Below, piece after piece: positions 3,669 through 63,925 of a stretch of DNA of 64,000 nt. The stretch is from Candidatus Levybacteria bacterium RIFCSPHIGHO2_02_FULL_40_18 (GTDB taxonomy: Bacteria; Patescibacteriota; Microgenomatia; Levybacterales; GWA1-39-11): the NCBI GenBank assembly GCA_001782235.1, contig MFOC01000007.1, positions 13,094 to 77,093 of the forward strand, read 5' to 3'. A model generated the notes under the pieces. The model had not been told where the DNA came from. It did no database searches and saw only the letters and a program-made list of their open reading frames with translations. The position numbers and the translations under genes are program-made. Each line of letters opens with the position of its first letter. The first letter of the stretch is position 1.

Positions 3669-4565
3669 AAGATCTTTCATTACATGAGGTATTTCATTGG
3701 CGAGGTCTGAGGCATTGAAGTAGATTCCCATTTTCTTCTCTAAAGACTCGCCGGCTTTTTTGTTGATATATGAACCCGCACACGCCGATAAAAAGGAGTC
3801 GTTTTTGCAATAAAGCGCGGCAACCAAACCTGCCAGCACATCCCCCGTTCCGCCTTTGGTCATTCCGGGATTTCCGCCTGAAATTCGGTTGCACCGAATT
3901 TCACCCTGAGCGATGGTGAGCGAAGTCGAACCAGAGTCGAAGGGTCCACATACAACATCGTACTCACCCTTAAGTAAAATCACGCAATTATATTCTTTCG
4001 AAAACAGTTCAACTTGTTCTTCAATTTTTGATTTTTGAGTTGTAGTTTTGAGTTTTGAGTTTTGAGTTTTGAGTTTTAAAATCTCGAATTCTTTTCTATG
4101 TGGTGTTAATATTGGCACTGTTTTCAAACTTCGAAGAACTTCCGGATCTATGGTTTGAAGCGATCCCCCATCAACCACCCACTTCTTCTCGGGATGCGAA
4201 CGAAATAGCCTCTCGGTCATTTCTTTTGTGTCATCATCGCCTTCTTCTTGTCCCTCGGGGCGGGGTAAACCCGGTCCAATCAGAACACAATCCGCCTCTT
4301 TAATATAATTCTCGACTTTTGACCGGGGTACAACTATTCCATTTCTAAATTCTTTTTTTGCGCGTTTAACGATTTCATTATTGGTGGGAACAGATGAGTA
4401 AAAAACCATGTCGACAATTCTTGAAGCAACTGCCAGTGCCCAAAGTGATGCGGCATGAAAAAGCTGTGAACCGCCAACAATCAGAAGTTTTCCATTCTGC
4501 CCCTTATGCGAATCAGAAGCCGGCCTGTAGAGATTTTTAAGCAAACTCGAATCAAACTCCTGCAT
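3654..4565 (-). CDS. nnrD: ADP/ATP-dependent NAD(P)H-hydrate dehydratase (YjeF C-terminal / carbohydrate-kinase-like domain)
   Basis: HKGQNGKLLIVGGSQLFHAASLWA near the N-terminus and GGTGDVLAGLVAAL near the C-terminus, typical of Nnr. Carries an in-frame heptamer repeat insertion (KLKTQNSKLKTTTQKSK). Confidence 0.7.
   Translation of the reverse strand: MQEFDSSLLKNLYRPASDSHKGQNGKLLIVGGSQLFHAASLWALAVASRIVDMVFYSSVPTNNEIVKRAKKEFRNGIVVPRSKVENYIKEADCVLIGPGLPRPEGQEEGDDDTKEMTERLFRSHPEKKWVVDGGSLQTIDPEVLRSLKTVPILTPHRKEFEILKLKTQNSKLKTTTQKSKIEEQVELFSKEYNCVILLKGEYDVVCGPFDSGSTSLTIAQGEIRCNRISGGNPGMTKGGTGDVLAGLVAALYCKNDSFLSACAGSYINKKAGESLEKKMGIYFNASDLANEIPHVMKDLLLFP
4025..4078. repeat. Tandem heptamer repeat (TTTTGAG/TCAAAAC family) lying in frame inside nnr
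   Basis: tttttgagttgtagttttgagttttgagttttgagttttgagtttt, read directly from the sequence. Confidence 0.8.
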
Positions 4566-8304: not shown

Positions 8305-9564
8305 TTACTTTAAGCCCTTAATAAAATCCAATATCTTTTTGTCAAACACATCACTTGAAAACTTTTGGGCCTGCTTGCGGCACGTCTCCGAGGAAATTTT
8401 TAATGACTCGAACTTTTTTATCGCATCGACCAGTGAATCTAAGGTGTATTCTCTAAAAAATAATCCGGTTTTTTCATCAATAACACTCTCTTTGTATCCC
8501 CCCCCATAATATGCAATGACTGGTGTTCCAGAGAGCATTGCTTCAACTGGCGTCATGCCAAAATCCTCATCCTCGGCAAGCGCTAAAAATGCTTTTGCAC
8601 CAGAATATAACTTTGCAAGTTCCTCATCCCTTACATGCCCCAAAAACTCTACGTTTTTTTCGGCTTTTTTTGAAAGAGATTTATATCCTGTGTAATACCC
8701 GGCAGGAAGTCCAACGATTTTTAGCTTGATTCCGAGTTTTGCCGCTGCCTCAACAGCCAAATCCAAACCCTTCGAACCGACAATTCGCCCCACTACTAAA
8801 TAGTAATCTCTTTTCACCCCCGAGGGGCGGACTGAAGCGCTAGCGAGGGAGCCCGCCTGCGAGCGGAGCGAGACAGGGGTGGAGAAAGCGGGGGTGGGCA
8901 ACGTCACTGGAGGATAAATTACCGTTGCATCTCGTCTGTAAAACTTTTGAATTCTTGCTTTTGTTTCCTCCGAATTAGCAATAAAGTAGTCCACTTTTTG
9001 TGCCATTTTAAAATCATAAAGCCGCAAGAAATGGCCAACAATCATTCCGTAAAGTTTAATTGGCCAATATCTTTGCCACTCAATTGAAGTCCGATAACCA
9101 TATAACCAGCGCGGCGGGGTGTGGCAGTAACATATCTCAATTGGCCCTTTCCCCCCCGAGGGGCGGACCGAAGCGTCAGCGAGGGAGCCCGCCTGCGAGC
9201 GGAGCGAGACAGGGGTGGAGAAAGCGGGGGTGGATTTGCGACTTCCGAAACCCTTAGTCACGTACCAAGATGCCGAACTTATGACCACGTCGTATTTTGA
9301 AAAATCGAAACTTGCCCAAATTAGTGGAGTTAGGAAACGCAAAGGGCTATGAAGCTTGTCGGCAAAAAAAGGAATGTAATGAACCCAAGAAGGAATAATT
9401 TTTGCACCTTTTAATCGCGCATAAGCGGTCGATCCTTCTTTGTAAAATGCCGTGTAAATAGGCGCATCGGGAAAAAGCTTGTGTAATTCCTCCACCACTC
9501 GCTCCGCCCCTCCGTATTCCTTTATATAATCATGGACTATAGCTACTTTGATGCTAGAACTCAT
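8305..9564 (-). CDS. Glycosyltransferase family 4 (retaining GT-B) carrying two in-frame GC-rich repeat insertions
   Basis: C-terminal EDFGMTPVEAMLSGTPVIA is an EX7E-like GT4 motif. The protein contains a duplicated segment TPAFSTPVSLRSQAGSLA(D/S)ASVRPSG, encoded by the two repeat copies. Confidence 0.75.
   Translation of the reverse strand: MSSSIKVAIVHDYIKEYGGAERVVEELHKLFPDAPIYTAFYKEGSTAYARLKGAKIIPSWVHYIPFFADKLHSPLRFLTPLIWASFDFSKYDVVISSASWYVTKGFGSRKSTPAFSTPVSLRSQAGSLADASVRPSGGKGPIEICYCHTPPRWLYGYRTSIEWQRYWPIKLYGMIVGHFLRLYDFKMAQKVDYFIANSEETKARIQKFYRRDATVIYPPVTLPTPAFSTPVSLRSQAGSLASASVRPSGVKRDYYLVVGRIVGSKGLDLAVEAAAKLGIKLKIVGLPAGYYTGYKSLSKKAEKNVEFLGHVRDEELAKLYSGAKAFLALAEDEDFGMTPVEAMLSGTPVIAYYGGGYKESVIDEKTGLFFREYTLDSLVDAIKKFESLKISSETCRKQAQKFSSDVFDKKILDFIKGLK
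8816..8898. repeat. ~83-bp GC-rich repeat element, copy 1, in frame inside the GT4 gene
   Basis: cccccgaggggcggactgaagcgctagcgagggagcccgcctgcgagcggagcgagacaggggtggagaaagcgggggtgg. About 70% GC in a ~40% GC background. Confidence 0.85.
9151..9232. repeat. ~83-bp GC-rich repeat element, copy 2, in frame inside the GT4 gene
   Basis: About 95% identical to copy 1 (cccccccgaggggcggaccgaagcgtcagcgagggagcccgcctgcgagcggagcgagacaggggtggagaaagcgggggtgg). Confidence 0.85.
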
Positions 9565-9594: not shown

Positions 9595-9996
9595 TTAAAA
9601 CTTTTTTTTACCTTTTAATGTTAAGACGCTCGAGGTAAGCATTTTACAGATCTGATCCAACTCCAACAAAAGTTCCTCACATTGAGGTTTCAATTCTACA
9701 TAAGAATCTCGAAGTAAAGATAACCAGTAGCGGGATTCGTTTCCTGATTTTAGAGATATTGTGTAGTAGTTAATAAAGTCTTTTCTTGAACTAGCTGACT
9801 TGGCTTCTATCAAATTTGCTCCTATCGAAGTTGATGATCTTAATAGTTGATCACCTATTGACCAAAAGGCCCGTTTGTTGGGTAGATTATTGACGAATTT
9901 TATTATTTCGATTGAAAAATCATAAGTTCTAACTCTTAAATCAGAAGATTTTGAGTTGTAGTTCTGAGTTTTGAGTTCTGAGTTTTGAGTTCTCAT
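9595..9996 (-). CDS. Four-helix-bundle protein (23S rRNA intervening-sequence protein family, TIGR02436-like)
   Basis: FDFSIEIIKFVNNLP…LLRSSTSIGANLIEAKSASSRKDFINYYTISLKSGNESRYWLSLL matches the family signature. The N-terminus carries an in-frame heptamer repeat. Confidence 0.7.
   Translation of the reverse strand: MRTQNSELKTQNYNSKSSDLRVRTYDFSIEIIKFVNNLPNKRAFWSIGDQLLRSSTSIGANLIEAKSASSRKDFINYYTISLKSGNESRYWLSLLRDSYVELKPQCEELLLELDQICKMLTSSVLTLKGKKKF
9949..9993. repeat. Tandem TCAGAAC/TCAAAAC-family repeat at the 5' end of the four-helix-bundle gene
   Basis: ttttgagttgtagttctgagttttgagttctgagttttgagttct. Confidence 0.75.
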
Positions 9997-10922
9997 AGGA
10001 GTTTCATCTGATTCTGCTTTTTGGTCTCTTCTTTTTTTACAAATACCTCGTCCACTCTTTTTGGTAAAGTCTTAAATTCAAATTCTTCGAGTGCATTTTT
10101 AAAGGCGCCGATATCAATTTTTTGCGTCTTGCAGTCTTTTAAATTACAAACGAATGGAACATCTGTCACAATTGCGGCAAGTTTTTTTCCTAAAGTTGCC
10201 GCTTCTGCCCCATCAATTAATTTTTGAGCTAAAGCCTTATTTTTCACGGCAATATCATCGAGGTGTTTATAAATATTGTCGACAGTTCCGTAGTCGGCAA
10301 TTAAATTCGAAGCAGTTTTTGGACCAACTCCCGGTACTCCCGGATAATTATCGGACGGATCACCGGTCAGCGCTTTTAAATCTACGAATTGTGAAGGATC
10401 AACGCTATATTTTTCTTTTACGTCGGCATTATCCAAAAGTTTTACTTCTGAAATACCTTTAACAGGCATTAGCACAAAAGTATCTTGATCAACCAATTGA
10501 AGCATATCTCGGTCCCCAGTTACTATATAGGTAAAAATCCCTTGTTTATTAGCGGCTTCGGACAGCGTACCGATTACATCATCCGCCTCATATCCGTCCA
10601 CTCCTACTTCCTGAATTTTTGCCTTATGTAAAATGTCAATAATTGCCTCGTATTGGGAGGATAAATCCGATTCCATTTTTGGGCGCTGGGCTTGATAGCC
10701 TACATAAAGTTGTTTCCGAAAAGTAGGTTTTGCCCTGTCAAAGGCAACCACAATATATGCGGGTTTTAATTGCTGGATAAGTTTTAGAAACATTGCAAAA
10801 AATCCGTGAATTGCGCCTGTCGGAATACCCTTAGATGTTGTAAATGGGGGCATTGCGTGATAGGCGCGGTGGACAATTGCCGGCCCATCCACAAGCAAAA
10901 AAACATTGCGCTTTTTTTCCAT
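9993..10922 (-). CDS. 5'-3' exonuclease (stand-alone Pol I N-terminal domain-like / FEN)
   Basis: VFLLVDGPAIVHRAYHA…VVAFDRAKPTFRKQLYVGYQAQR and a helix-hairpin-helix region (LTGDPSDNYPGVPGVGPKTA). Start taken at the MEKKRNVF Met rather than the upstream extension at 10958. Confidence 0.8.
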   Translation of the reverse strand: MEKKRNVFLLVDGPAIVHRAYHAMPPFTTSKGIPTGAIHGFFAMFLKLIQQLKPAYIVVAFDRAKPTFRKQLYVGYQAQRPKMESDLSSQYEAIIDILHKAKIQEVGVDGYEADDVIGTLSEAANKQGIFTYIVTGDRDMLQLVDQDTFVLMPVKGISEVKLLDNADVKEKYSVDPSQFVDLKALTGDPSDNYPGVPGVGPKTASNLIADYGTVDNIYKHLDDIAVKNKALAQKLIDGAEAATLGKKLAAIVTDVPFVCNLKDCKTQKIDIGAFKNALEEFEFKTLPKRVDEVFVKKEETKKQNQMKLL

Positions 10923-11040
10923 GCGAACATTATAGCAAGAAAAATAAGAAAAGCGCATTGATAATTGATTATTTATTATTGATTATTGAGATTATATTGG
11001 ATTATTGGAAATTGGTAGTATTGGTAATATTTGAAATTCC

Positions 11041-12565
11041 CAGGAGGGAGAACTGAGGGTGCGGGGTAGATGTGTGTTCGTCATGAAGACGAGAATGTTG
11101 CTTGCGCAACCACACAGCTACCGCCGCACCTTTCCCGATTGAATCGGGACTCAGTCTGCGAAGACCTTCAAGCTTACGCAATCAGGCCTTTTCGCCTTGT
11201 TCAGGACGAACCTGAAGCGTTAACGAGGGCGCAAAGAGCCGCCGTCACGTGTTCAGGAAATTCGTCCCAGACGAAACCCCTAAGGGTCACTTCGTCCGTT
11301 AGCGACGTGCGAACTTTAGGGTCGCGACGCCGGCGAGGGCGAGGGCGAAGGCGAAGGCTATGGCACCAGCGATGCCAAACAGGACCGAGCTGTTGCCAGC
11401 GTCGGCCAGGCCAGCGTCACCGGCGAAAGCCGTGGACGTGTTCAGCGACAGCACCGAGATTGCTATCACGCTGATAAACGCCACAATCGCCAAAACCGGC
11501 CTGCTGAACGTAATCACCGACCTTCCGATGAAGGCGCTCATGCCGATGCCATGGAGTACTCTTCTCATGGTGTTGAGTCGTAGCAGTCGCAGTCGTCGCG
11601 ATGACGATGTCGGGTCGTGAGCTACGATGTAGAGTACGCCGATGGCGGCCAGTACGAGCAGGCTTGTTGCCAGGATGACGGCGGTGGTCGTTTCAGAGTC
11701 CATCAGGGCGACGACGGTGTTGCCGCCTGTTTTGACCACTGCCTGGTCGTACACGTCGCCTACTGCGATCGGGACCGCTTCTAGCGTGTCCGGGACCGAG
11801 TCAGTCGCCGCGTACATCGTTGTCGTGGCCGGTGGGTCGTGTCCGAGCTTCAGTCCGAAGAGACCGAAAGCTCCGAACGCTACGAGGAGAGCGGCGATAA
11901 GGCCGATCACCCCAAGCTTTCTGTCTTTCACGGCGGTTCCTCCTGTTGTCCTTCTTTGGAAGGATCTTGCCGGGTTTCTCTCTTGGCTTCGTCTCTGCCC
12001 CAGGGCACGTAGGTCCCCGATGGTTTCCCTAACGCGAGGTCTCTCCTTTTGTGCTCTGGCGGTCCCGTTACCCCCTCCTTTACCTTGAAAGGATGATTAT
12101 TGGAAGGCCCAAGATGCGGACGGCGGGGATCCCGCGCGGGGGTGTCCGTATCATTCGGCCGTAACTTTTGATGGAGACGCAGATTTCGCCCAGCCCCAGA
12201 CACTGCATTCCCGTGACAGAAGCAACGTACTCGAACTGCTCGTGCGTCTCCACCTCTCAAGACCAGCTTTTATTCGATAAACTTCTCCTTTCCAGACTAT
12301 CGTGCTTACCGATAAAATATGGTAATCTCCTGTGCCTTGCCGTCCTCGGCCGAGAATCGCAGCTACGAACAAGGCTCCAAGAGAATTATTGGCCATGGGG
12401 GGGCATACTGCTTTGTCGCATTTCGCGGGCGAGGAGATTTGCAACTTCGGCAGAAGTGTCCCCATGGGGAGGCCCACTGAGTTCGCAGCCGGAGGTGGGG
12501 CCTCCAAAAGGCGGAGCGAAAACTCCTTAGCGTGATGTAGCGGGCGGAAAGACTACGATAGCACG
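11041..12565. other. GC-rich island 1 (~55-60% GC, ~1.5 kb) lying in an intergenic position
   Basis: Abrupt composition shift relative to flanking ~40% GC sequence. Contains one plausible membrane-protein ORF with an AGGAGG SD and ~630 bp with no convincing ORF. Confidence 0.7.
11299..11931 (-). CDS. Hypothetical integral membrane protein encoded within GC-rich island 1
   Basis: GTG start preceded by AGGAGG at a 7-nt spacing. Several predicted TM helices (LIAALLVAFGAFGLFGL…, ILATSLLVLAAIGVLYIVA…, AIVAFISVIAISVL…). Confidence 0.4.
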   Translation of the reverse strand: MKDRKLGVIGLIAALLVAFGAFGLFGLKLGHDPPATTTMYAATDSVPDTLEAVPIAVGDVYDQAVVKTGGNTVVALMDSETTTAVILATSLLVLAAIGVLYIVAHDPTSSSRRLRLLRLNTMRRVLHGIGMSAFIGRSVITFSRPVLAIVAFISVIAISVLSLNTSTAFAGDAGLADAGNSSVLFGIAGAIAFAFALALAGVATLKFARR

Positions 12566-12633
12566 CGAGGAGTGTAAAGGCTTTTATTTTCTTCTTTCGA
12601 ATTGATATTCGACTGTGAACCCTATGTAGTAAC

Positions 12634-12676
12634 CGACAATTGACATTTGACAACTGACAATTGACAATTGACAAAT
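12634..12676. promoter_or_regulatory. Tandem TTGACAA-type direct repeats (iteron/operator-like)
   Basis: gacaattgacatttgacaactgacaattgacaattgacaa, immediately outside GC island 1. Confidence 0.3.
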
Positions 12677-12954
12677 TGTTGCACAGGATTCACAGCCGAA
12701 CTATATGCACCATGCTTTTAGGTGCATGCTACCAATTCCAAAAGAAGTTTACCCCGTTAGAAAATTTATTTTCTAATCGGGCTTCGCAGACTGAATTTTC
12801 AAAGAGCAAAGCATTTGTCTAAATAAATAACGCGCATGCAAAAAGCGCTTATTATTAGGACAATGCTAATATTTGAAGTATATACCCGAATAAAACGCGT
12901 TTCAAGTGGAATTTCGATGTATCTTCCTAATCCCTAGTATCTAGTCACTATTTG

Positions 12955-15174
12955 CTAACTTTGGGGTTTTCGGCCGTATCTCTCTTTAGAGTGGCGAATT
13001 ATTGCTTCTCGGTTTTCGTTTTTTACGGCAGGTAATGGCAAAGTAGTTGCCGGAAAAGGCGCAGAAGTCATACCATCAATCGATAGTTTCATAACCGTTT
13101 CATACTTTCCAAGCGAAACCAAATCATTCTCCGTATAAATTTCGGCAAATTCTTTTGTTAAAAGCTCCGCATCGTGCGCTCCGACGACGAAAGAAACCAG
13201 TGTCCCAACGTTTCCATAAATCGCATATTGTACATCCTCTTCAAGCTGGTCAGAGTATTGATTTGCTAAAGTTAAAGACAGGCGGTATTTTCGGGCCTCA
13301 GACAGTATTTTTATAAAAGAGGTGGTGGCAAAATTTTGAAACTCATCAACGTAAAGGAAAAAGTCGCGCCGAGACTCTTCTTTTTGAAAAGATCGATTCA
13401 TAGCGGCCAACTGAATCTGAGTAATTACCATGGCGCCTAAAAGCGCAGCATTGTCTTCACCTAATTTCCCTTGAGCTAAATTCAAAATCAAAATTTTCCC
13501 CTCATCCATTATTTGCTGCAAGTTAATGGAGGATGTGGGGTGCCCAATAATGTTTCGAATCATTCTTGATGATACAAACTGTCCAACTTTGTTCTGAATC
13601 GGGGAAACTGCCTCTGCTTTTAATTTATCTGGCATCTTGGCAAATTCTGCCTCCCAAAAGTTGCGAAGTACAGGATCAGAAAGTTTTGATACCACTTTTT
13701 GGCGAAAGGCTTGATCTGAAAGAATTCGAAGCGCATCAATTAAAGTACCCTCTTCTATATCAAGAAGAGTAAGGATTACGTTTCGCAAGATATACTCAAG
13801 TCTCGGACCCCATGACTCTCCATATATCTTATGGAAAATCGAAACAATCCCAGACGAAACTAAGTCTTTGTGCTGTGAATTATGAATCTCTAAAACATTT
13901 AAAGAAAACGGCCGCGTGACGTCAAACGGCTCAAGATAGACAACATCATTAAGTCTTCTTTTGGGGATAAAATCTAAAATGATCTCGGATAAATCTCCGT
14001 GCGGATCAATTATCCCAATCCCGCGATCCTTTCTTATGTCATCGATTGCCATGTTGGCAATGAGAGTTGACTTCCCGGCTCCTGTTTTTCCGATAATATA
14101 GACGTGTTTTCGCCTGTCAGGCGTTTTTATCCCAAAAATGGTATCCTGATTTTTAAATTCGGTTTTGGCAAAAAAATTAATATCCTTTTTTTCTTCCTCT
14201 GAAACATTTGTTATTGCGGGAAGATTCTCGGGCGGCTCACCCAAAAGCGTCTTACCCCATGCAACATTCTTAATCCCCGCAAGTAAAAACCCGGGAGGAT
14301 GCCAGATTGTTGCAAGTTCGGCAGCATTTAAAACTTGGTTTTTCCGCTCCAAAAAATTTACGGACCGATTCTTTATCCGAGCAAGCAGTTTTTTTTTGTT
14401 AACCGAAAGGAGGGGTTTTCTAAAAACAAATTGATTCCCCTCACCTAGAGAAAAGCTTCCAAAAGTTCCAGCCAAATTCTGCATATAGGCACGTGCATTG
14501 GGATCGTCCGAGCCAACAACCAAACGAATCACTGCCTTTCCCCCCTGAAACCCGGCTTTTTGCATCATGCGAAGCTTCTGCGGGTTTTGCGCGTATCGAA
14601 TTGTTGCACCCATGGAACTTTCACCTGTTGTTACATCTTTGACTGTCTGCTGATGAGTATCTTCAAGTAAATGCCCTGCCATTTCAACCGCCTTGTCCTG
14701 CCAGGCAAAACTTGCGGGTTTTATAACTATTTGGACAGCCATCCTGACAGTTGAATCTTGTTTGGCTAAAAAACCAAGGAGGGAGGAGAGCGGATCTACA
14801 TCCTGAAGGTCCACGTATGTTTTTATAGGAAGATAAGAATAAGAATTTAAAACCATTTCGCCAACCGCAATGTGTTTTGATTCAAGAACTTTCTCCATTG
14901 GATCATCTGTCCGCATAATGTTAGATTTTGGAAAGGATGAGGCAATCAAACTTGTCACAAGGGTCTCATTCTCAGAAAGTGTCGTGACATAGAAATACAC
15001 GGTTTGTCCAATCAGGTACACCTCAAAGGCGTGAGATTTTGGGTGAATATAAACTCTTTTCCACAAAGGTATATAAGGATAGGGCAGAAGAGATGAAAAG
15101 ATTTGGGTCGCAGCCTCAATCGGCGTTTCATCATCTTTTGGGTTTCGTACTAATAAATGCGCGAAATCATTCAT
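12955..15174 (-). CDS. VirD4/TraD/TraG-like (type-IV-secretion coupling-protein-like, DUF87/HerA-like) P-loop ATPase
   Basis: Walker A YIIGKTGAGKSTLIANMA and Walker B LYVDEFQNFATTSF. Large N-terminal non-ATPase domain; 739 aa. Confidence 0.55.
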   Translation of the reverse strand: MNDFAHLLVRNPKDDETPIEAATQIFSSLLPYPYIPLWKRVYIHPKSHAFEVYLIGQTVYFYVTTLSENETLVTSLIASSFPKSNIMRTDDPMEKVLESKHIAVGEMVLNSYSYLPIKTYVDLQDVDPLSSLLGFLAKQDSTVRMAVQIVIKPASFAWQDKAVEMAGHLLEDTHQQTVKDVTTGESSMGATIRYAQNPQKLRMMQKAGFQGGKAVIRLVVGSDDPNARAYMQNLAGTFGSFSLGEGNQFVFRKPLLSVNKKKLLARIKNRSVNFLERKNQVLNAAELATIWHPPGFLLAGIKNVAWGKTLLGEPPENLPAITNVSEEEKKDINFFAKTEFKNQDTIFGIKTPDRRKHVYIIGKTGAGKSTLIANMAIDDIRKDRGIGIIDPHGDLSEIILDFIPKRRLNDVVYLEPFDVTRPFSLNVLEIHNSQHKDLVSSGIVSIFHKIYGESWGPRLEYILRNVILTLLDIEEGTLIDALRILSDQAFRQKVVSKLSDPVLRNFWEAEFAKMPDKLKAEAVSPIQNKVGQFVSSRMIRNIIGHPTSSINLQQIMDEGKILILNLAQGKLGEDNAALLGAMVITQIQLAAMNRSFQKEESRRDFFLYVDEFQNFATTSFIKILSEARKYRLSLTLANQYSDQLEEDVQYAIYGNVGTLVSFVVGAHDAELLTKEFAEIYTENDLVSLGKYETVMKLSIDGMTSAPFPATTLPLPAVKNENREAIIRHSKERYGRKPQS

Positions 15175-34407: not shown

Positions 34408-34728
34408 TTTATAAAATCAGCTTCAAAGTGGCTCAGAAAACTCGGGTCTTCACCTTTTAAATGGCTCCACAAACTCTACAAATCTCTTTTTAATGGCTCT
34501 AAAAACTCCAATTGACCAAGAATGCTATAATCAAGCTATAATTTGATTGCCTAAACTCACAGTAATGTGGGCATGGCACAAAAACCTTCGCAGAATTAAG
34601 CTCGTCGTCAGAGCATCTGCGAAGGTTGTCGCCCGAAAGGACGGCAGGTGGGGCAACCCATCGTTGGCGGCGAGCTTTGCTATTGTTCGCCTCCAACAAA
34701 ACCTAAACTGTCGAGGGAGGTGAAAAAT

Positions 34729-58928: not shown

Positions 58929-59294
58929 TCAAAACCCCGATATATTCTCAAGATGCTCAAGACTTTCTACCTTGTTACCGGGCGAAAGAATAATACCTAT
59001 TGCGTCTATTCGCATAAAATCTGGGAGATTAGGATGGAGTTGTTTGTAAAATTGCGCGAGACGTACAAGATGTTTTAATTTCCAAGGGGTAATTGATTCA
59101 AAAGGCGAGCCGAACGAATCAGATCTTCGAGTCTTGACTTCAACAAATACCAAAGTCGAATTTTTGATTGCAATAATATCTATTTCTTGATATTTCTTGC
59201 GAAAGTTTCGCTCAATAATCTTATAGCCTTTGCTCACCAAATACTCGCACGCCAAATCCTCCCCTATTTTTGCAATCGGATTGACTATTTTCAT
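58929..59294 (-). CDS. yraN: YraN family (UPF0102) endonuclease
   Basis: IGEDLACEYLVSKGYKIIERNFR…IDIIA…VFVEVKTR. Confidence 0.8.
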   Translation of the reverse strand: MKIVNPIAKIGEDLACEYLVSKGYKIIERNFRKKYQEIDIIAIKNSTLVFVEVKTRRSDSFGSPFESITPWKLKHLVRLAQFYKQLHPNLPDFMRIDAIGIILSPGNKVESLEHLENISGF

Positions 59295-60421
59295 TTTTCA
59301 AGAGGGGTGAGGCCGGGGAGTTTGTGGCCGGACAGGAATTCTAGCATTGCACCGCCGCCGGTTGAGACAAAATCGAAATTATCAAGAAGATTTATTCGGC
59401 GAAGATACGCCAATGTGTCTCCCCCTCCAACCACTTTATACGCTTTTGTCGAAACAATAAATTCTGCAAGTTCTCGTGTGCCTTGCTCGCTATCTATTTT
59501 GTCAGAAAAATTGATCATTCCGACTGGCCCGTTCCAAACAATAGTCGCGGCCAACCCCAAAATCTGTTTAAAATTCTCTATTGACTTTGGAGTAATATCA
59601 AAACCGTCTTCTCTCAAATCCGCCACTAACACCGCGGACTTTGGCCCTTTTATTTCTTCGTGCTGAACCTTTATTAAAACGCGGGTTTGTTCGGCAATTT
59701 CTCCGCCAACCAGAACATAGTCGGCAACATGGTGCATCTTTGAAACCAGGGGCAGTTTTGTTTCAATTTTTGCCCCTCCAATAAGTACCGCTAGGGGACG
59801 TCTTGCCGCCGGCCCAGAGGGCCTCTGGCCCGGAAGGGGATTATTTAAAATCTTTGAAAGTTCACTAACTTCTTTTGCAAGATGCAATCCGGAATAAGAA
59901 GAAAGAAATTTTGTCACCCCCACAATACTTGCGTGTTCGCGATGACAAACCGCAAAAGCATCATTAACATAAATATCTCCCAGAAGCGCCAATTCACGAG
60001 CGAACGCGAGTCCTGAGGCGGTCGTTGGATTCTTTTCTTCTCCTTTGAAGAATCGAACGTTTTCGATGAGATTAATTCGATCAGTAATTTTCCACCCTGG
60101 AAAATCTCCAATTTTTGTCTCTTCGACTTTCCCATCGAATTTTTTCGCGTACCAATGCGCAATCGATTTTAAACTAAATTCGTTATTTATACTTAATACT
60201 TTATACTTACTACTTAATACTGGCTCCGGCCGCCCAAGATGTCCTACAATATTCACATCCGCCCCTTTTTTTAATAGAAATTCGATTGTCGGAATCGCAG
60301 AAGAAAGTCTTGTATCATCTATTATTCGACCATTTTCGATATCGACATCAGTATCAATCCTAAGCAAAACAGTTTTTCCAGAAAGATCTGAGAGAGAATC
60401 TATTGCGCGAAGTTTACTCAT
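59291..60421 (-). CDS. pgk: Phosphoglycerate kinase
   Basis: Typical Pgk N- and C-terminal domains (…VLLRIDTDV…, …GGGDTLAYL…). Contains an in-frame tandem repeat (SSKYKVLSINNEF). Confidence 0.88.
   Translation of the reverse strand: MSKLRAIDSLSDLSGKTVLLRIDTDVDIENGRIIDDTRLSSAIPTIEFLLKKGADVNIVGHLGRPEPVLSSKYKVLSINNEFSLKSIAHWYAKKFDGKVEETKIGDFPGWKITDRINLIENVRFFKGEEKNPTTASGLAFARELALLGDIYVNDAFAVCHREHASIVGVTKFLSSYSGLHLAKEVSELSKILNNPLPGQRPSGPAARRPLAVLIGGAKIETKLPLVSKMHHVADYVLVGGEIAEQTRVLIKVQHEEIKGPKSAVLVADLREDGFDITPKSIENFKQILGLAATIVWNGPVGMINFSDKIDSEQGTRELAEFIVSTKAYKVVGGGDTLAYLRRINLLDNFDFVSTGGGAMLEFLSGHKLPGLTPLEK
60190..60222. repeat. TACTTAATACT-family tandem repeat, in frame inside pgk
   Basis: tacttaatactttatacttactacttaatactg. 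Confidence 0.75.
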
Positions 60422-60769
60422 TACCTTTTTATACTATTTTTCAGGCAAAGAAAAAAGCCCGGACCGAAAAGTAGTAAGTTGATGAAATGCGTGTGAACGC
60501 ATAAACAGCATGCTAGACGCTGTTGATTCATCAACCGTTCCTAATCGGTCGGGGCTTCTCCTGCACTCTTTGAGTGTCATTCAATTGTTCGCGTACTTAG
60601 CACGACGGGGGTGGGGATGGCCATCTCTTCTCAAGGAAGTGGGCGAGAATTCCGCAAGGAATGCTTGTCACTCCTAGAGCAAAGTAGCCAACCATCACTG
60701 CGTAGAGAATCGAGTCCATTTCGTGCTCCTTTCATGAACGGCGAATCCCGATTTTTCGGAAACCCCAGG

Positions 60770-61192
60770 CTAGGACGAGCTGAGTACTCTCAGCACATCG
60801 TCGAATCGCTCATTCAAGACGAGATCAGCGGGCGTTCTCCCTTCGAGTTGGTGGTTCCTGGTTCGAAGCCATTCACACGCCTTGTCCATGTCTGGAAAGG
60901 CTTGTCGTAGCCTCCTCATAAGGGTTGTACCTGAGGCGAGGTGGCTCGCTTCGATTTTCGAGTAAATCAAGGCGCAGGGGATTTTCTCCCATTCGACCTC
61001 AACCTCATATTCAGGACCTCGTTGCTCTCGGCGATGAATCGCGAGGGCTGCACGTACCCATTCCGAGAACGGAATGCCGCGTTGTCGCGCTTTATCCGCC
61101 TCTTCACGGGCCTTTGCTCGATCCCAACCAAGCTCAACAACCATGTCGTAGACTTCATCTTCTGCCCGAGTGGGTTCATGCATTTGTTCCAC
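60770..61192 (-). CDS. DUF2384-like (Xre/MbcA/ParS-type) antitoxin-domain protein; no cognate RES toxin nearby
   Basis: C-terminal ACEWLRTRNHQLEGRTPADLVLNERFDDVLRVL resembles the toxin-binding domain of MbcA/ParS-type antitoxins. Confidence 0.45.
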   Translation of the reverse strand: MEQMHEPTRAEDEVYDMVVELGWDRAKAREEADKARQRGIPFSEWVRAALAIHRREQRGPEYEVEVEWEKIPCALIYSKIEASHLASGTTLMRRLRQAFPDMDKACEWLRTRNHQLEGRTPADLVLNERFDDVLRVLSSS

Positions 61193-61259
61193 GTCTTTTC
61201 TCCTTGTCTCGCCAAAGGCGGACTGAACGGCGATCCTTCGATGAACTCAGGACCCCGGG

Positions 61260-61451
61260 CTAGATGATGAGGCTTGCTGCGCCAATCAGGATAAGCAATA
61301 CCCCTATTGCCCCTGCAAAACCTAGGAAAACTATCTTGATCGAAACCTCGGTCGCAACGTCGGCCCTTCTTCTAGGCACACCCCAGACATTGAGCCAAGC
61401 AAAGATGATCGCTGCGGCTATGAGGAAGCCTCCGATCTTAATCAGTTCCAT
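61260..61451 (-). CDS. Small hydrophobic membrane protein
   Basis: GGAGGAGAAATG start context; two TM helices. Confidence 0.35.
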   Translation of the reverse strand: MELIKIGGFLIAAAIIFAWLNVWGVPRRRADVATEVSIKIVFLGFAGAIGVLLILIGAASLII

Positions 61452-61843: not shown

Positions 61844-63925
61844 CTAATTTGTTTGTGGAGTAGGAGTAACCGAAGGTATTGAAGCGCGGCAATTTACTGA
61901 ATTTTCGGTTCCTTTTATAAAATACCTATCCTGTCCAAGACAAAATTTCTTTACAACATTTCCGGGAATTATTGTTGCTTGCGGCGTACCGACTTTCTCA
62001 ATCATCATTGTCATTATTTTATTCCACATGGGGGCCGCACCGGTGATCCCTGATGCGAGAGCAGGATTTAGCGGGCTGTTATCATTATTTCCAACCCATG
62101 TAGCAACAAGTACATTTGGGGTAAACCCTACTGTCCAGTTATCACGCTTATTGTCAGTAGTCCCGGTTTTGACGGAAACGCGAGCTCCGGGGATAGCAAG
62201 CGGCGTGTCGATACCAAACTCAATTCTTCTTGCATTGCTGTCCGAAAGTATATCGGAAATTATAAAAGCAACTCCATCATCAAGAACAGAAGTTGCAACA
62301 GGCTCTTTCTCATAAATTGTCTTACCGAACGAATCTTTCACCGAAAGTATTGGATTTAAATTAACTCTATTGCCGCCATTCGCAATTACTCCATAAGCAG
62401 TTGCCATATCCGTCATTCTTACCTCAAGCCCGCCAAGCGTGATAGAAACACCGTAATTTTTGGCCCCTTGCCAAGATGCGATTCCCATTTTTTCTCCAAA
62501 TTCTTTGATTGCCGAGGGGCCCACTTTTTGAGCAACGCGAACCGCCGGGACATTGAAAGAATTGGCAAAAGCAGTGCGAAGGGGTACTTTTCCGTGAAAC
62601 GCTCCGTCATAATTAACAGGTGTATAAGACGGGCCTCCCGGTGTATGAATTGTCAATGGGGTGTCATCAAGAATTGTTGCCTCTGTGTAGCCATTTGATA
62701 AAGCCAATGAATAAGTAACAACTTTTATTGCTGAGCCGGGCTGACGAAGCGCGGTTGTAAGATTAACGTTCCCATTCTGCTCATCAAAATAGTTTTTACT
62801 TCCAACCATAGCAAGAATGTCTCCGTTTAACGGAGCCGTGATTAAAGCCGCGCCGTTTCCAATGTTAAGATAGGCGTTTGCCTCAACTTCTGAAGCAACA
62901 ATCTTTTCTACTTCCTCTTGAAGTGGAAGGTCAATACTTGTAATTACGCTCAAGCCCCCGCGTTCAACTTCACTTAATCCATATTTTTCAACCAGAAGTT
63001 TTCTAACATACATCACGAAATGAGGAGCTTTTATGGGGCTTTGAGGCTTTTTAATAATCAACTCCTCCCGATATGCTTTTTCGGCATCGGCGCGAGTTAT
63101 AAATCTTTCGCGCACCATGGCGTCAAGAACTTCTTTTTGGCGTTTTCTCCAAAGTTCACCATTCCCAAAAATAGGAGAGTAGATAGATGGCGCCCGCGGA
63201 AGCCCTGCAAGGAAAGCAGATTCCCCAAGAGTCAAGTCGGAAACATTTTTCCCAAAATAAATCTCAGCAGCCGATTGTATTCCCCAAGCAGTACCCCCAT
63301 AGGGTACATAGTTTAAATAAAGCTCGAGAATTTCATGTTTGCTGTAAATTCTCTCGGCCCAAAAAGCAAGCGCAACTTCGCGGACTTTTCTTATTATTGT
63401 TGGTTCAGGTGTCAGAAAAGCGGACTTTATAAGCTGCTGGGTGATGGTTGAGCCTCCCTGAAGCTCTGCGCCCTGAAGGTTTGAGACAGCGGCGCGGACA
63501 ATGCCTCGTAAATCAAAACCGGGATGATTGTAGAAATCTCTGTCTTCTATCGCAACTGTTGCATCACGAAGTGCCTTTGGAATATCTTCTAAAGAAACCA
63601 CAGTTCTATTTTGATTCGCAAATATTTCATATAGAAGATTGCCATTCCTATCATAAATTTTAGTAGTTTTAGGAATGTGATTTAAAGAGAGATTGGCAGG
63701 ATTTGGCAGGTCCTGTACAAAGATCAAAGAGACAAGAGGCGCAAAAAGGAAAACAAAGGAAAAAACAAAGCCTATGAAAACATATTTCAACTTATAAAGA
63801 AAAGACGGCCTGTGAATACCATTTCTTAATCTTGCCAGTTTTCTTTGCGAAGTTGTTCTTCTTCCTCTTTTAACAGTAGCCCGTGTTAAATACCATTTCC
63901 AAAAGCTCCCGAAAAAACCTCCCAA
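61844..63925 (-). CDS. Class A penicillin-binding protein (second copy)
   Basis: EDRDFYNHPGFDLRG, GGSTITQQLIKSAFL, transpeptidase region. Confidence 0.85.
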   Translation of the reverse strand: MGGFFGSFWKWYLTRATVKRGRRTTSQRKLARLRNGIHRPSFLYKLKYVFIGFVFSFVFLFAPLVSLIFVQDLPNPANLSLNHIPKTTKIYDRNGNLLYEIFANQNRTVVSLEDIPKALRDATVAIEDRDFYNHPGFDLRGIVRAAVSNLQGAELQGGSTITQQLIKSAFLTPEPTIIRKVREVALAFWAERIYSKHEILELYLNYVPYGGTAWGIQSAAEIYFGKNVSDLTLGESAFLAGLPRAPSIYSPIFGNGELWRKRQKEVLDAMVRERFITRADAEKAYREELIIKKPQSPIKAPHFVMYVRKLLVEKYGLSEVERGGLSVITSIDLPLQEEVEKIVASEVEANAYLNIGNGAALITAPLNGDILAMVGSKNYFDEQNGNVNLTTALRQPGSAIKVVTYSLALSNGYTEATILDDTPLTIHTPGGPSYTPVNYDGAFHGKVPLRTAFANSFNVPAVRVAQKVGPSAIKEFGEKMGIASWQGAKNYGVSITLGGLEVRMTDMATAYGVIANGGNRVNLNPILSVKDSFGKTIYEKEPVATSVLDDGVAFIISDILSDSNARRIEFGIDTPLAIPGARVSVKTGTTDNKRDNWTVGFTPNVLVATWVGNNDNSPLNPALASGITGAAPMWNKIMTMMIEKVGTPQATIIPGNVVKKFCLGQDRYFIKGTENSVNCRASIPSVTPTPQTN

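Follow-up and report, generated by a model that had tools for sequence, protein, structure and literature searches.

Replacement-type flexible genomic islands and hypervariable islets that encode cell-surface structures and are flanked by core genes are found in marine bacteria and in many pathogens. A locus that appears to behave like such an islet for envelope proteins was studied here in Candidatus Levybacteria bacterium RIFCSPHIGHO2_02_FULL_40_18, within a stretch of 64 kb of contig MFOC01000007.1 that is referred to as the window (its own copy of the locus being the window allele; L and P numbers denote the contigs or loci and the proteins that were compared with it). The locus is a guanine+cytosine (GC)-rich island between the genes of a 5'-3' exonuclease (exo) and a VirD4-like ATPase (Table 1). 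As in flexible islands, the site is fixed between core genes, the cargo is often non-homologous and envelope-related, the composition is atypical, structural alleles exist at the strain level, and the island itself is without dedicated mobility genes. Unlike flexible islands, it is one small cassette (1.5-4 kb) that is consistently far GC-richer than its host from the Candidate Phyla Radiation (CPR), shows homology to another phylum (Chloroflexota), and has a conserved branched hairpin at its end. The island was probably acquired horizontally as a complete transcription unit in a recombination hotspot of Levybacteria, with its gene coming from a surface-protein family of high-GC Chloroflexota (Dehalococcoidia).

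For aquifer Patescibacteria, the main text of a published survey describes genomic islands and singly transferred genes as common (PMC12455944). Unlike the present case, the transfers in that text are mostly intra-phylum, with donor phyla that include Omnitrophota and Bacteroidota, and the string 'Chloroflex' is absent from it. VirD4-like coupling-protein homologues are common in Patescibacteria and usually do not lie beside virB4 (PMC12102498); therefore no functional link is drawn between the island and the neighbouring ATPase.

A recurrent replacement hotspot between two conserved genes

For the composition of the locus, a preceding sequence-only reading had described an abrupt rise in GC and a compositionally foreign segment placed exactly between two intact genes, and both descriptions stand, with the expected domains found in both neighbours. 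GC in 200-nt windows is 0.34-0.39 before the island, 0.49-0.63 between ~11030 and ~12616, and 0.36-0.44 after it. The island is the largest anomaly and the biggest high-GC run in the window (1587 nt at 0.569, window mean 0.408; the second-biggest run has 914 nt at 0.533), and a self-similarity check that included the other GC bumps found zero sequence shared between it and the rest of the 64 kb. It has the atypical composition of horizontally acquired DNA, both overall (GC 0.57 vs 0.41) and at the third codon positions of its gene (GC3 0.72 vs 0.36).

Relatives were located with the exonuclease protein as anchor in 185,579 species genomes, and the VirD4-like-to-exo synteny is kept in 22 of them. 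The site is empty in seven (L012, L026-L030, L041), where the two genes lie 1-83 bp apart; L012 has an exo identity of 78% and a VirD4-like identity of 88%. In the remaining 15 the site is filled by a gap of 1.4-4.1 kb that is always GC-rich, with peaks of 0.55-0.72 vs flanks of 0.37-0.42, and scarcely alignable between lineages; diverged GC-rich DNA also occupies the site in the diverged relatives L008 (exo 76% nucleotide identity) and L203, a further lineage. Most filled gaps contain one same-strand gene (GC3 0.63-0.81), the product of which begins with a signal peptide, continues with a variable body rich in Ser, Thr and Ala, and has a transmembrane (TM) helix followed by a basic tail at its C-terminus. 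These envelope proteins are mosaics, as N-terminal modules are common to the window allele, L014, L017 and P0002, and C-terminal modules to the window allele, P0003, L010 and L025, while the protein bodies are unrelated. The cargo also includes non-envelope genes, namely a fatty-acid desaturase (GC3 0.61; L015:3266-5001), a DeoC/LacD-family aldolase (0.73; L023:1426-5001) and a thioredoxin (0.80; L025:1683-5001), and the GC3 of island genes overall is 0.61-0.81.

The VirD4-like/exo site is a recurrent replacement hotspot, not the place of a one-off insertion, and the island is absent from some relatives, namely those with the seven empty sites. The earlier description of a ~1.5-kb insertion thus needs amending: the island of that size is real, but the inserted material, judged against empty-site relatives, is the entire gap of ~1.9-2.0 kb, including its AT-rich 390-nt part (12566-12954), and it is not private to this genome. 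Conservation of the island in all relatives had been named as an observation that would speak against insertion; it was borne out only in part, the site being filled in ~15 species-level relatives and empty in 7. Many of the GTDB-representative metagenome-assembled genomes (MAGs) that are syntenic here (L010, L012, L015, L016, L018, L020-L032 etc.) are titled 'uncultured Gammaproteobacteria bacterium', and L051 is titled Bathyarchaeia; they look mislabelled.

Table 1. Coordinates of the GC-rich island, its parts and its neighbours in the window
Feature	Position	Strand	Remarks
5'-3' exonuclease gene (exo)	9993-10958	-	5_3_exonuc_N/5_3_exonuc domains
AT-rich spacer with (ATCAATAAT)n-type repeats	10959-11039	-	upstream of exo promoter; kept in relatives and in empty-site genomes
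Branched (Y-shaped) hairpin	11040-11148	-	directly 3' of the gene; exo-proximal cassette end
GC-rich island	11041-12565	.	57% GC vs 41% window-wide
Gene for 210-aa membrane protein	11299-11931	-	GC at codon positions 1/2/3 (GC1/2/3) 0.62/0.48/0.72, coding-like
attB core (GCCCTG region)	11704-11711	.	inside island gene; unoccupied here, occupied in sister strains
GC-rich non-coding 5' leader	11932-12565	-	no coding remnant, no Rfam match, no thermodynamic structure
Start-proximal block of the 5' untranslated region (UTR)	11937-12004	-	homologous to 5' UTR of the P0007 gene (L066)
Shine-Dalgarno sequence AGGAGG	11939-11944	-	7 nt before GTG start (11929-11931)
Conserved leader element GCGATTCTCGGCCGAGG	12333-12368	-	perfect palindrome CTCGGCCGAG within outer stem
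Hairpin enclosing (CAATTGACA)n repeats	12601-12720	.	AT-rich gap part; z -4.8 and -6.8
Candidate sigma-70-like promoter	12877-12905	-	TTGAAA-17-TATACT, best coding-strand match
VirD4-like ATPase gene	12955-15174	-	TrwB_AAD_bind/DUF87/TraG-D_C domains

The island gene and its protein

Among the 47 long open reading frames (ORFs) of the window, the island gene is the only one with GC3 above 0.5, its value of 0.72 standing against a mean of 0.36 for the window genes (z 9.8), and the coding-like GC1/2/3 pattern is absent from every other ORF of the island. Because of this pattern, and because the differences between the window allele and L008 in the conserved block NTSTAFAGDAGL are all synonymous, including a serine change from TCC to AGC, the ORF is regarded as a real gene. 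The single membrane-protein gene of the sequence-only reading is thereby supported, hydropathy giving four TM-like segments (aa 4-30, 79-109, 138-170 and 179-209). The first of them is an N-terminal signal/TM helix that follows a basic N-terminus and is homologous to the signal peptides of P0007, P0019 and P0020; it is called a signal peptide on hydropathy and homology. The C-terminus consists of the conserved motif mentioned above, the TM helix VLFGIAGAIAFAFALALAGVATL (aa 179-205) and a KFARR tail. The GTG start with its AGGAGG sequence had been called unlike the host style, which holds roughly: with ORF starts taken naively, a strong Shine-Dalgarno motif precedes just 2 of the 47 long ORFs, and 33 of the 47 start with ATG. 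The combination of AGGAGG and a non-ATG start recurs in the Dehalococcoidia-type homologue on L066.

Scans of the island ORF against Pfam and NCBIfam returned no family, and the AlphaFold model of the protein is too low in confidence to use (mean predicted local distance difference test score, pLDDT, 40.6; predicted template modelling score, pTM, 0.27). Between positional orthologues the proportion of synonymous differences (pS) is saturated (~0.65) and that of non-synonymous differences (pN) is 0.3-0.56, the C-terminal third being most constrained; the uncorrected pN/pS of 0.5-0.9, with synonymous sites saturated, shows little beyond this stronger C-terminal constraint. The island protein is fast-evolving, with a conserved anchor.

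A related surface-protein family in Dehalococcoidia

An exhaustive hidden Markov model (HMM) search of 1.84 billion representatives found just 17 proteins, in most cases with a match to no more than the last ~40 positions by the C-terminus of the protein concerned, and the use of P0007 as query added ~50 more family members. The family layout consists of a signal peptide of the type K(L)GV(I)G..AALLxAFGAFGL, a variable body of immunoglobulin (Ig)-like repeats, and a terminus that reads APRTG(Q/T)G..PP(N/S)TGDAGL, nine residues, a TM helix and KFARR. Most family members lie on very short contigs, as expected of hypervariable genes that break assemblies. The carriers L066, L069, L070 and L071 have 63-70% GC throughout, with housekeeping GC3 of up to 0.96 (coaE). 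PurF encoded on L070 shares 95% identity with a protein that bears the label Dehalococcoidia bacterium, other labelled matches agree, and the family protein P0058 is labelled Chloroflexota. L066 belongs to the accession series ERZ272547xx-272548xx, which also holds several window-type contigs. In these Dehalococcoidia-type genomes the family genes (L066:325-1935, L069:3875-5224, L070:6338-7387, L071:10001-12352) occur in a recurrent neighbourhood of varying gene content, with hemerythrin, SH3_3 protein and GT87 genes upstream and coaE downstream.

At the DNA level, the window allele and L066 are 79% identical over the C-terminus (window 11282-11421) and 71% identical over 154 nt of 5' UTR and N-terminus including the first codons (window 11860-12004), and the start-proximal block reaches 79% over 75 nt. 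The anchor of the window protein is 80% identical to that of P0007 and ~55% identical to that of its positional orthologue P0003, which is itself closest to P0008 and P0013 (66-68%). An acquired island would be expected to have homologues in a plausible donor lineage of fitting composition, and such homologues are present here, with homology only in the terminal modules and the leader. The GC3 of island genes (0.63-0.81) lies between that of the host (0.36) and that of donor-type genes (0.81-0.96).

Two potential scenarios on the origin of the island gene can be set against each other: (i) transfer from such a donor, and (ii) vertical inheritance as a native Levybacteria gene, the GC-rich synonymous sites of which would be due to selection or biased gene conversion (e.g. 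for mRNA structure or stability) and the likeness of which to Dehalococcoidia would be convergent, anciently common, or the result of acquisition from CPR. Scenario (ii) is unlikely. It would account for the short 'STAFAGDAGL' orthologues that share this position in no fewer than four lineages of Levybacteria (the window allele, L008, L010, L203), for a 3' hairpin that co-evolves with the locus, and for a GC3 that remains at 0.63-0.72 across orthologues despite the saturated pS, which selection could explain too. Yet the site is empty in seven relatives, and gene-specific selection cannot explain the unrelated GC-rich genes for a desaturase, an aldolase and a thioredoxin found there. In addition, the non-coding leader is just as GC-rich as the gene, the DNA identity of 71-79% to a 66% GC contig reaches into the UTR, and the intermediate GC3 of the island (0.63-0.81) is what partial amelioration from donor-type values predicts.

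For the anchor, one of the closest described counterparts is the LPXTG-type sorting signal, which is presented as an LPXTG motif followed by a hydrophobic stretch and a positively charged tail in PMC4617865. The Dehalococcoidia-type relatives resemble sortase substrates in having a leader, a P-x-T-G motif (PPNTG/PPSTG), a hydrophobic helix and the KFARR tail, although the classical signal does not include the invariant GDAGL that follows the TG. Leader, helix and charged tail are retained in the window protein, but it reads NTSTAFAGDAGL where the relatives read PP(N/S)TGDAGL, so that the T-G dipeptide and the proline are gone (T-A-F-A-G), and it differs further by two additional TM helices in its interior and by the absence of a folded ectodomain. 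Because the P-x-T-G motif is lost, the window protein is not filed as a sortase substrate. No TLxTC-like sortase signature was found in any long ORF of the 64-kb window. The NCBIfam model NF058571 (GVDTG_CTERM) gave a sub-threshold match to the C-terminal 35 residues of P0014 and P0035 (15-16 bits; cut-off 29) and no match at E<=10 to the window ORF or its short orthologues.

The 3' branched hairpin and the island borders

At the exo-proximal cassette end, a 266-nt stretch (11035-11300) that includes the branched hairpin folds at -127.4 vs -85.3 +/- 4.8 kcal/mol for shuffled sequences (z -8.7). In a sliding-window analysis (120 nt), 11041-11160 has z -7.7, and the hairpin folds equally well on both strands. 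Homologues follow the gene in L010, L008 and L016, the latter with two cassettes and two copies, and a covariance model built from the window, L010, L016 and L008 copies found further ones in L015, L011, L009, L018 and L017, only at the exo-proximal end of the gap; it found no other copy in the 64-kb window. Across the 10 copies from 9 lineages, with one strand taken per locus, 81% of the alignment cells are paired vs 62% in shuffles (maximum 69%), and compensatory changes are present in 23 of the 27 pairs vs 13 in shuffles (maximum 20), on an alignment fitted to the covariance model, which somewhat favours structure. For the five copies outside the training set, the paired fraction is 77.5% vs 59.7%. 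L203 has a similar hairpin architecture, as judged by eye, and UUUU tracts follow the stem in L010 and L016. Placed between the cassette and the exo promoter TTGCTATAAT, the hairpin may serve there as a terminator or an insulator; this promoter lies a few nt before the conserved exo ATG near 10922, outside the AT-rich spacer.

A conserved hairpin that closes each cassette, zero to two cassettes per site (two, with two hairpins, in L016), heterogeneous cargo of foreign composition, and folding on both strands, as a DNA site would do, are features that an integron-like or other site-specific cassette system would also have, the hairpin being an attC-like site at which cassettes are captured singly on the exo-proximal side. 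Such a system is quite improbable here, and an integron cassette was rejected: no integron integrase or other recombinase was called within +/-10 kb in the window allele or in relatives, and the hairpin termini CTGAG...CTCAG, on inspection of the sequence, are unlike the attC R''/R' cores (RYYYAAC/GTTRRRY). Moreover, L020-L022 and L025 end in ordinary GC-stem/U-tract terminators, the empty sites are without a hairpin, and the sole recombinase observed (see below) uses another site, inside the gene.

Both flanks of the island hold only loose AT-rich repeat arrays of the type ATTGA(C/T)AATTGA. Arrays of GTCAATTG, ATCAATAAT and TTGACTTT border the islands on both sides and are also present at the L012 empty site; it may be these arrays that make the hotspot prone to recombination. 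In most filled-gap relatives (L013, L014, L017, L020-L025), very stable hairpins (z down to -12), analogous in position to the one at 12601-12720 of the window, were seen 120-250 nt past the VirD4-like stop codon.

The 5' leader

For the ~630 bp upstream of the gene, the earlier finding that there is no credible ORF is upheld, as 11932-12565 shows no coding-like pattern, and blastx and tblastx comparisons of the leader and the island tail with all gap proteins and gap DNA revealed no credible coding remnant. The suggestion of a structured GC-rich transcript in the same interval did not hold: leader folding is like that of dinucleotide shuffles (z -0.31 on the coding strand, +1.64 on the other, no 120-nt window at or below -3), and the structured element of the locus is the branched hairpin instead. 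The covariance scan that had been proposed for the non-coding part (11932-12560) was run with Rfam 15 and found nothing at the gathering threshold in 10950-12700; the best permissive matches (E 1.9-8) were to unrelated miRNA and snoRNA models, and at E<=10 the island had no credible family match.

Apart from the start-proximal block, the leader has one conserved element, at 12333-12368, which is also found in L066, L069, L010, L122, L135 and L138. It reads GCGAT(T/C)CTCGGCCGAGG with a pairing outer stem, and in extended form GCGTCGC-AGCWGCGATTCTCGGCCGAGG-GCGACGC; a longer pattern for the palindrome is GCGTCGCAGCWGCGATTCTCGGCCGAGGGCGACGC. Among the 119 matches listed in a metagenome scan with the 17-nt core, 3 (L122, L135, L138) carry the extended motif, 110-330 nt upstream of family genes, and the remaining 116 are chance matches within unrelated GC-rich genes. 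The palindrome could be an RNA hairpin or a DNA operator for a protein, both being equally possible. On the coding strand, the best sigma-70-like consensus match is the candidate at 12877-12905, which may be the promoter of the island transcript.

It is very improbable that 11932-12565 is a functional structured RNA (a large non-coding RNA or a riboswitch-like leader) and that this RNA is what the island really carries. The genome is AT-rich and this stretch, in contrast, rich in GC and without coding sequence, and the changes in the outer stem of the conserved element preserve pairing (CCTCG/CGAGG, CCTTG/CAAGG, CTTTC/GAAAG), as such an RNA would require. Against it stand the shuffle-like folding energies on both strands and in every 120-nt window, the lack of an Rfam match at E<=10, and the failure of the leader to align, beyond its two short blocks, with that of even the closest species. 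The core of the element is invariant, a perfect DNA palindrome of 10 bp in which covariation is almost absent (1 of 11 pairs compensatory), and this would suit a protein operator equally well.

Assembly support and strain-level alleles

For the possibility that Levybacteria DNA and DNA of a GC-rich organism were joined in assembly, which the sequence-only reading had raised as a concern, the abrupt change in composition and one contig (L007, see below) that switches partner inside the ORF would be in line. The exact ORF product is present on 22 contigs and the exact exonuclease protein on at least 23, and both junctions are 100% identical to the window in L001-L006, L075, L077, L079-L081 and L083, which come from NCBI, several ENA, JGI and Logan assemblies. 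A chimera is effectively refuted: different assemblers and samples yielded more than 12 contigs in which the two junctions are identical, the island is flanked by Levybacteria genes to its left and right, and the site in diverged relatives is occupied by islands that have diverged as well.

Large serine recombinase (LSR) elements are known to integrate into protein-coding genes such as comK, spsM and groEL1, and an element of this kind occupies the island gene in sister strains. L072-L074, which include a second NCBI MAG (GCA_001784035.1), match the window down to 11704 (99.98% identical) and then continue into DNA of ~33% GC, and L076 and L078 match the window from 11711 onward, identities across these contigs being 99.98-100%. 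Between the two junctions lies an element of 10,384 bp with a GC of 0.36 (L072:6229-12294, L076:1-9247). It encodes an LSR at its right end (Resolvase, Recombinase and Zn_ribbon_recom domains; phrog_95, E 4e-68), an excisionase-like helix-turn-helix (HTH) protein, a DNA methyltransferase and a ResIII/DEAD helicase; no phage structural genes were found in it. Near-identical genomes with and without the element, an LSR at one end and a short common core point to an LSR attachment site, and since sister strains carry the element between 11704 and 11711, the window is regarded as the unoccupied attB allele. The element resembles described LSR elements in the position of its recombinase by one end, the excisionase-like protein, the short core shared by attB and attP, and integration inside an ORF. 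It differs from them in that the window has only the empty attB, in that the 3' end of the recombinase gene harbours attP, with both the attL and the attR fusions in frame, and in carrying a methylase/helicase pair but no phage structural genes. Upon integration the recombinase grows from 514 aa (reconstructed excised form) to 627 aa by taking the last 137 residues of the island protein, membrane anchor included, and the island protein is shortened from 210 to 97 aa.

A third allele is found on L007, a 165-kb JGI contig that is 99.9% identical up to codon ~44 of the gene, with a breakpoint at ~11800 (L007:10132-14061). Past the breakpoint it has another GC-rich body (P0002, GC3 0.68), then MacB/FtsX and ABC-ATPase genes, and no exo.

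Proposed origin and the evidence weighed

It is probable that the island gene descends from a secreted surface-protein family native to high-GC Dehalococcoidia, of which the window copy would have retained the signal peptide, the GDAGL-TM-KFARR anchor, the Shine-Dalgarno sequence with a non-ATG start and parts of the leader. It would have lost the P-x-T-G cleavage motif and the Ig-like body, to become a short four-helix membrane protein. Composition suggests a transfer from Dehalococcoidia to Levybacteria that was repeated, or refreshed by recombination, and followed by partial amelioration. Cargo turnover may have proceeded by homologous recombination through the conserved ends, that is, the leader and signal peptide on one side and the anchor and 3' hairpin on the other. 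The branched hairpin, as a terminator or insulator, would shield the leaderless exo promoter, and the island protein would reside in the cell envelope, tail-anchored and no longer processed by sortase.

Several observations weigh against this origin. No integrase, transposase, tRNA or tmRNA was found inside or adjoining the island, and no clear target-site duplication was seen flanking it in the window allele. Similarity to the Dehalococcoidia family is restricted to ~110 nt of leader and terminal modules of 24-40 aa, nothing was found to match the 115 aa in the middle of the window protein, and the discordance between anchors is argued from segments of 38-40 aa. The direction of transfer is suggested by composition alone, and the donor may not always have been the same; for the cargo families of L020-L022, L023 and L025, no Dehalococcoidia relative was detected. 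For the hairpin as a terminator, the window copy has no clear U-tract. L007 could be a chimeric contig as well as a real rearrangement or cassette swap. Acquisition from the Dehalococcoidia family nevertheless remains the probable explanation.

Other features of the window

For the rest of the window, GC bumps at ~38.6 kb and ~50.5 kb were considered as similar islands and rejected, being low-complexity tails of ordinary genes (265-aa and 744-aa ORFs). A second, smaller GC-rich stretch at 60506-61419 (GC 0.53) contains a 140-aa ORF at 60770-61192(-), flanked by a 376-aa ORF (59291-60421) and a 693-aa ORF (61844-63925), and has no sequence in common with the island; it may be a further insertion of foreign DNA. 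At 34548-34662(+) there is a full-length LOOT RNA (Rfam RF03000, 87 bits, gathering score 46.4).

In addition, an 86-nt GC-rich repeat is present in two in-frame copies (95% identical) at 8812-8897 and 9148-9233, inside a GT4 glycosyltransferase gene (8305-9564(-)), to the product of which it adds PAFSTPVSLRSQAGSLA.ASVRPSG twice. A 43-nt partial copy lies at 4033-4075, and in the strain variant L082 there is a deletion between the repeat copies of the glycosyltransferase gene. The repeat resembles small palindromic elements, or elements like miniature inverted-repeat transposable elements (MITEs), that insert in frame into genes.

Implications

On a conservative reading, the locus is a clear replacement hotspot in a streamlined genome, of a known kind and with an unusual pairing of probable donor and recipient. 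Three of its parts may be of further use: an apparently undescribed C-terminal sorting-signal variant in Dehalococcoidia, PP(N/S)TGDAGL-TM-KFARR; a conserved, covarying branched hairpin of ~110 nt that is specific to the VirD4-like/exo locus; and a natural attB/attP pair of a CPR large serine recombinase with both fusions in frame.

The hosts of most CPR/Patescibacteria lineages, Levybacteria included, are unknown, and a recurrent, locus-specific flow of surface genes from one donor class would bear on this question. A rather unlikely extension of the proposed origin is that Levybacteria repeatedly capture envelope genes, together with their leaders and anchors, from Dehalococcoidia of the same aquifers and keep them at one hotspot beside the VirD4-like ATPase. 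The Dehalococcoidia would then be a host or partner, the captured modules would serve attachment or mimicry, and the conserved ends would act as homology arms for recombinase-free exchange of cassettes. If true, these uncultured episymbionts would have Dehalococcoidia as their physical host or partner, which is a concrete and testable host hypothesis.

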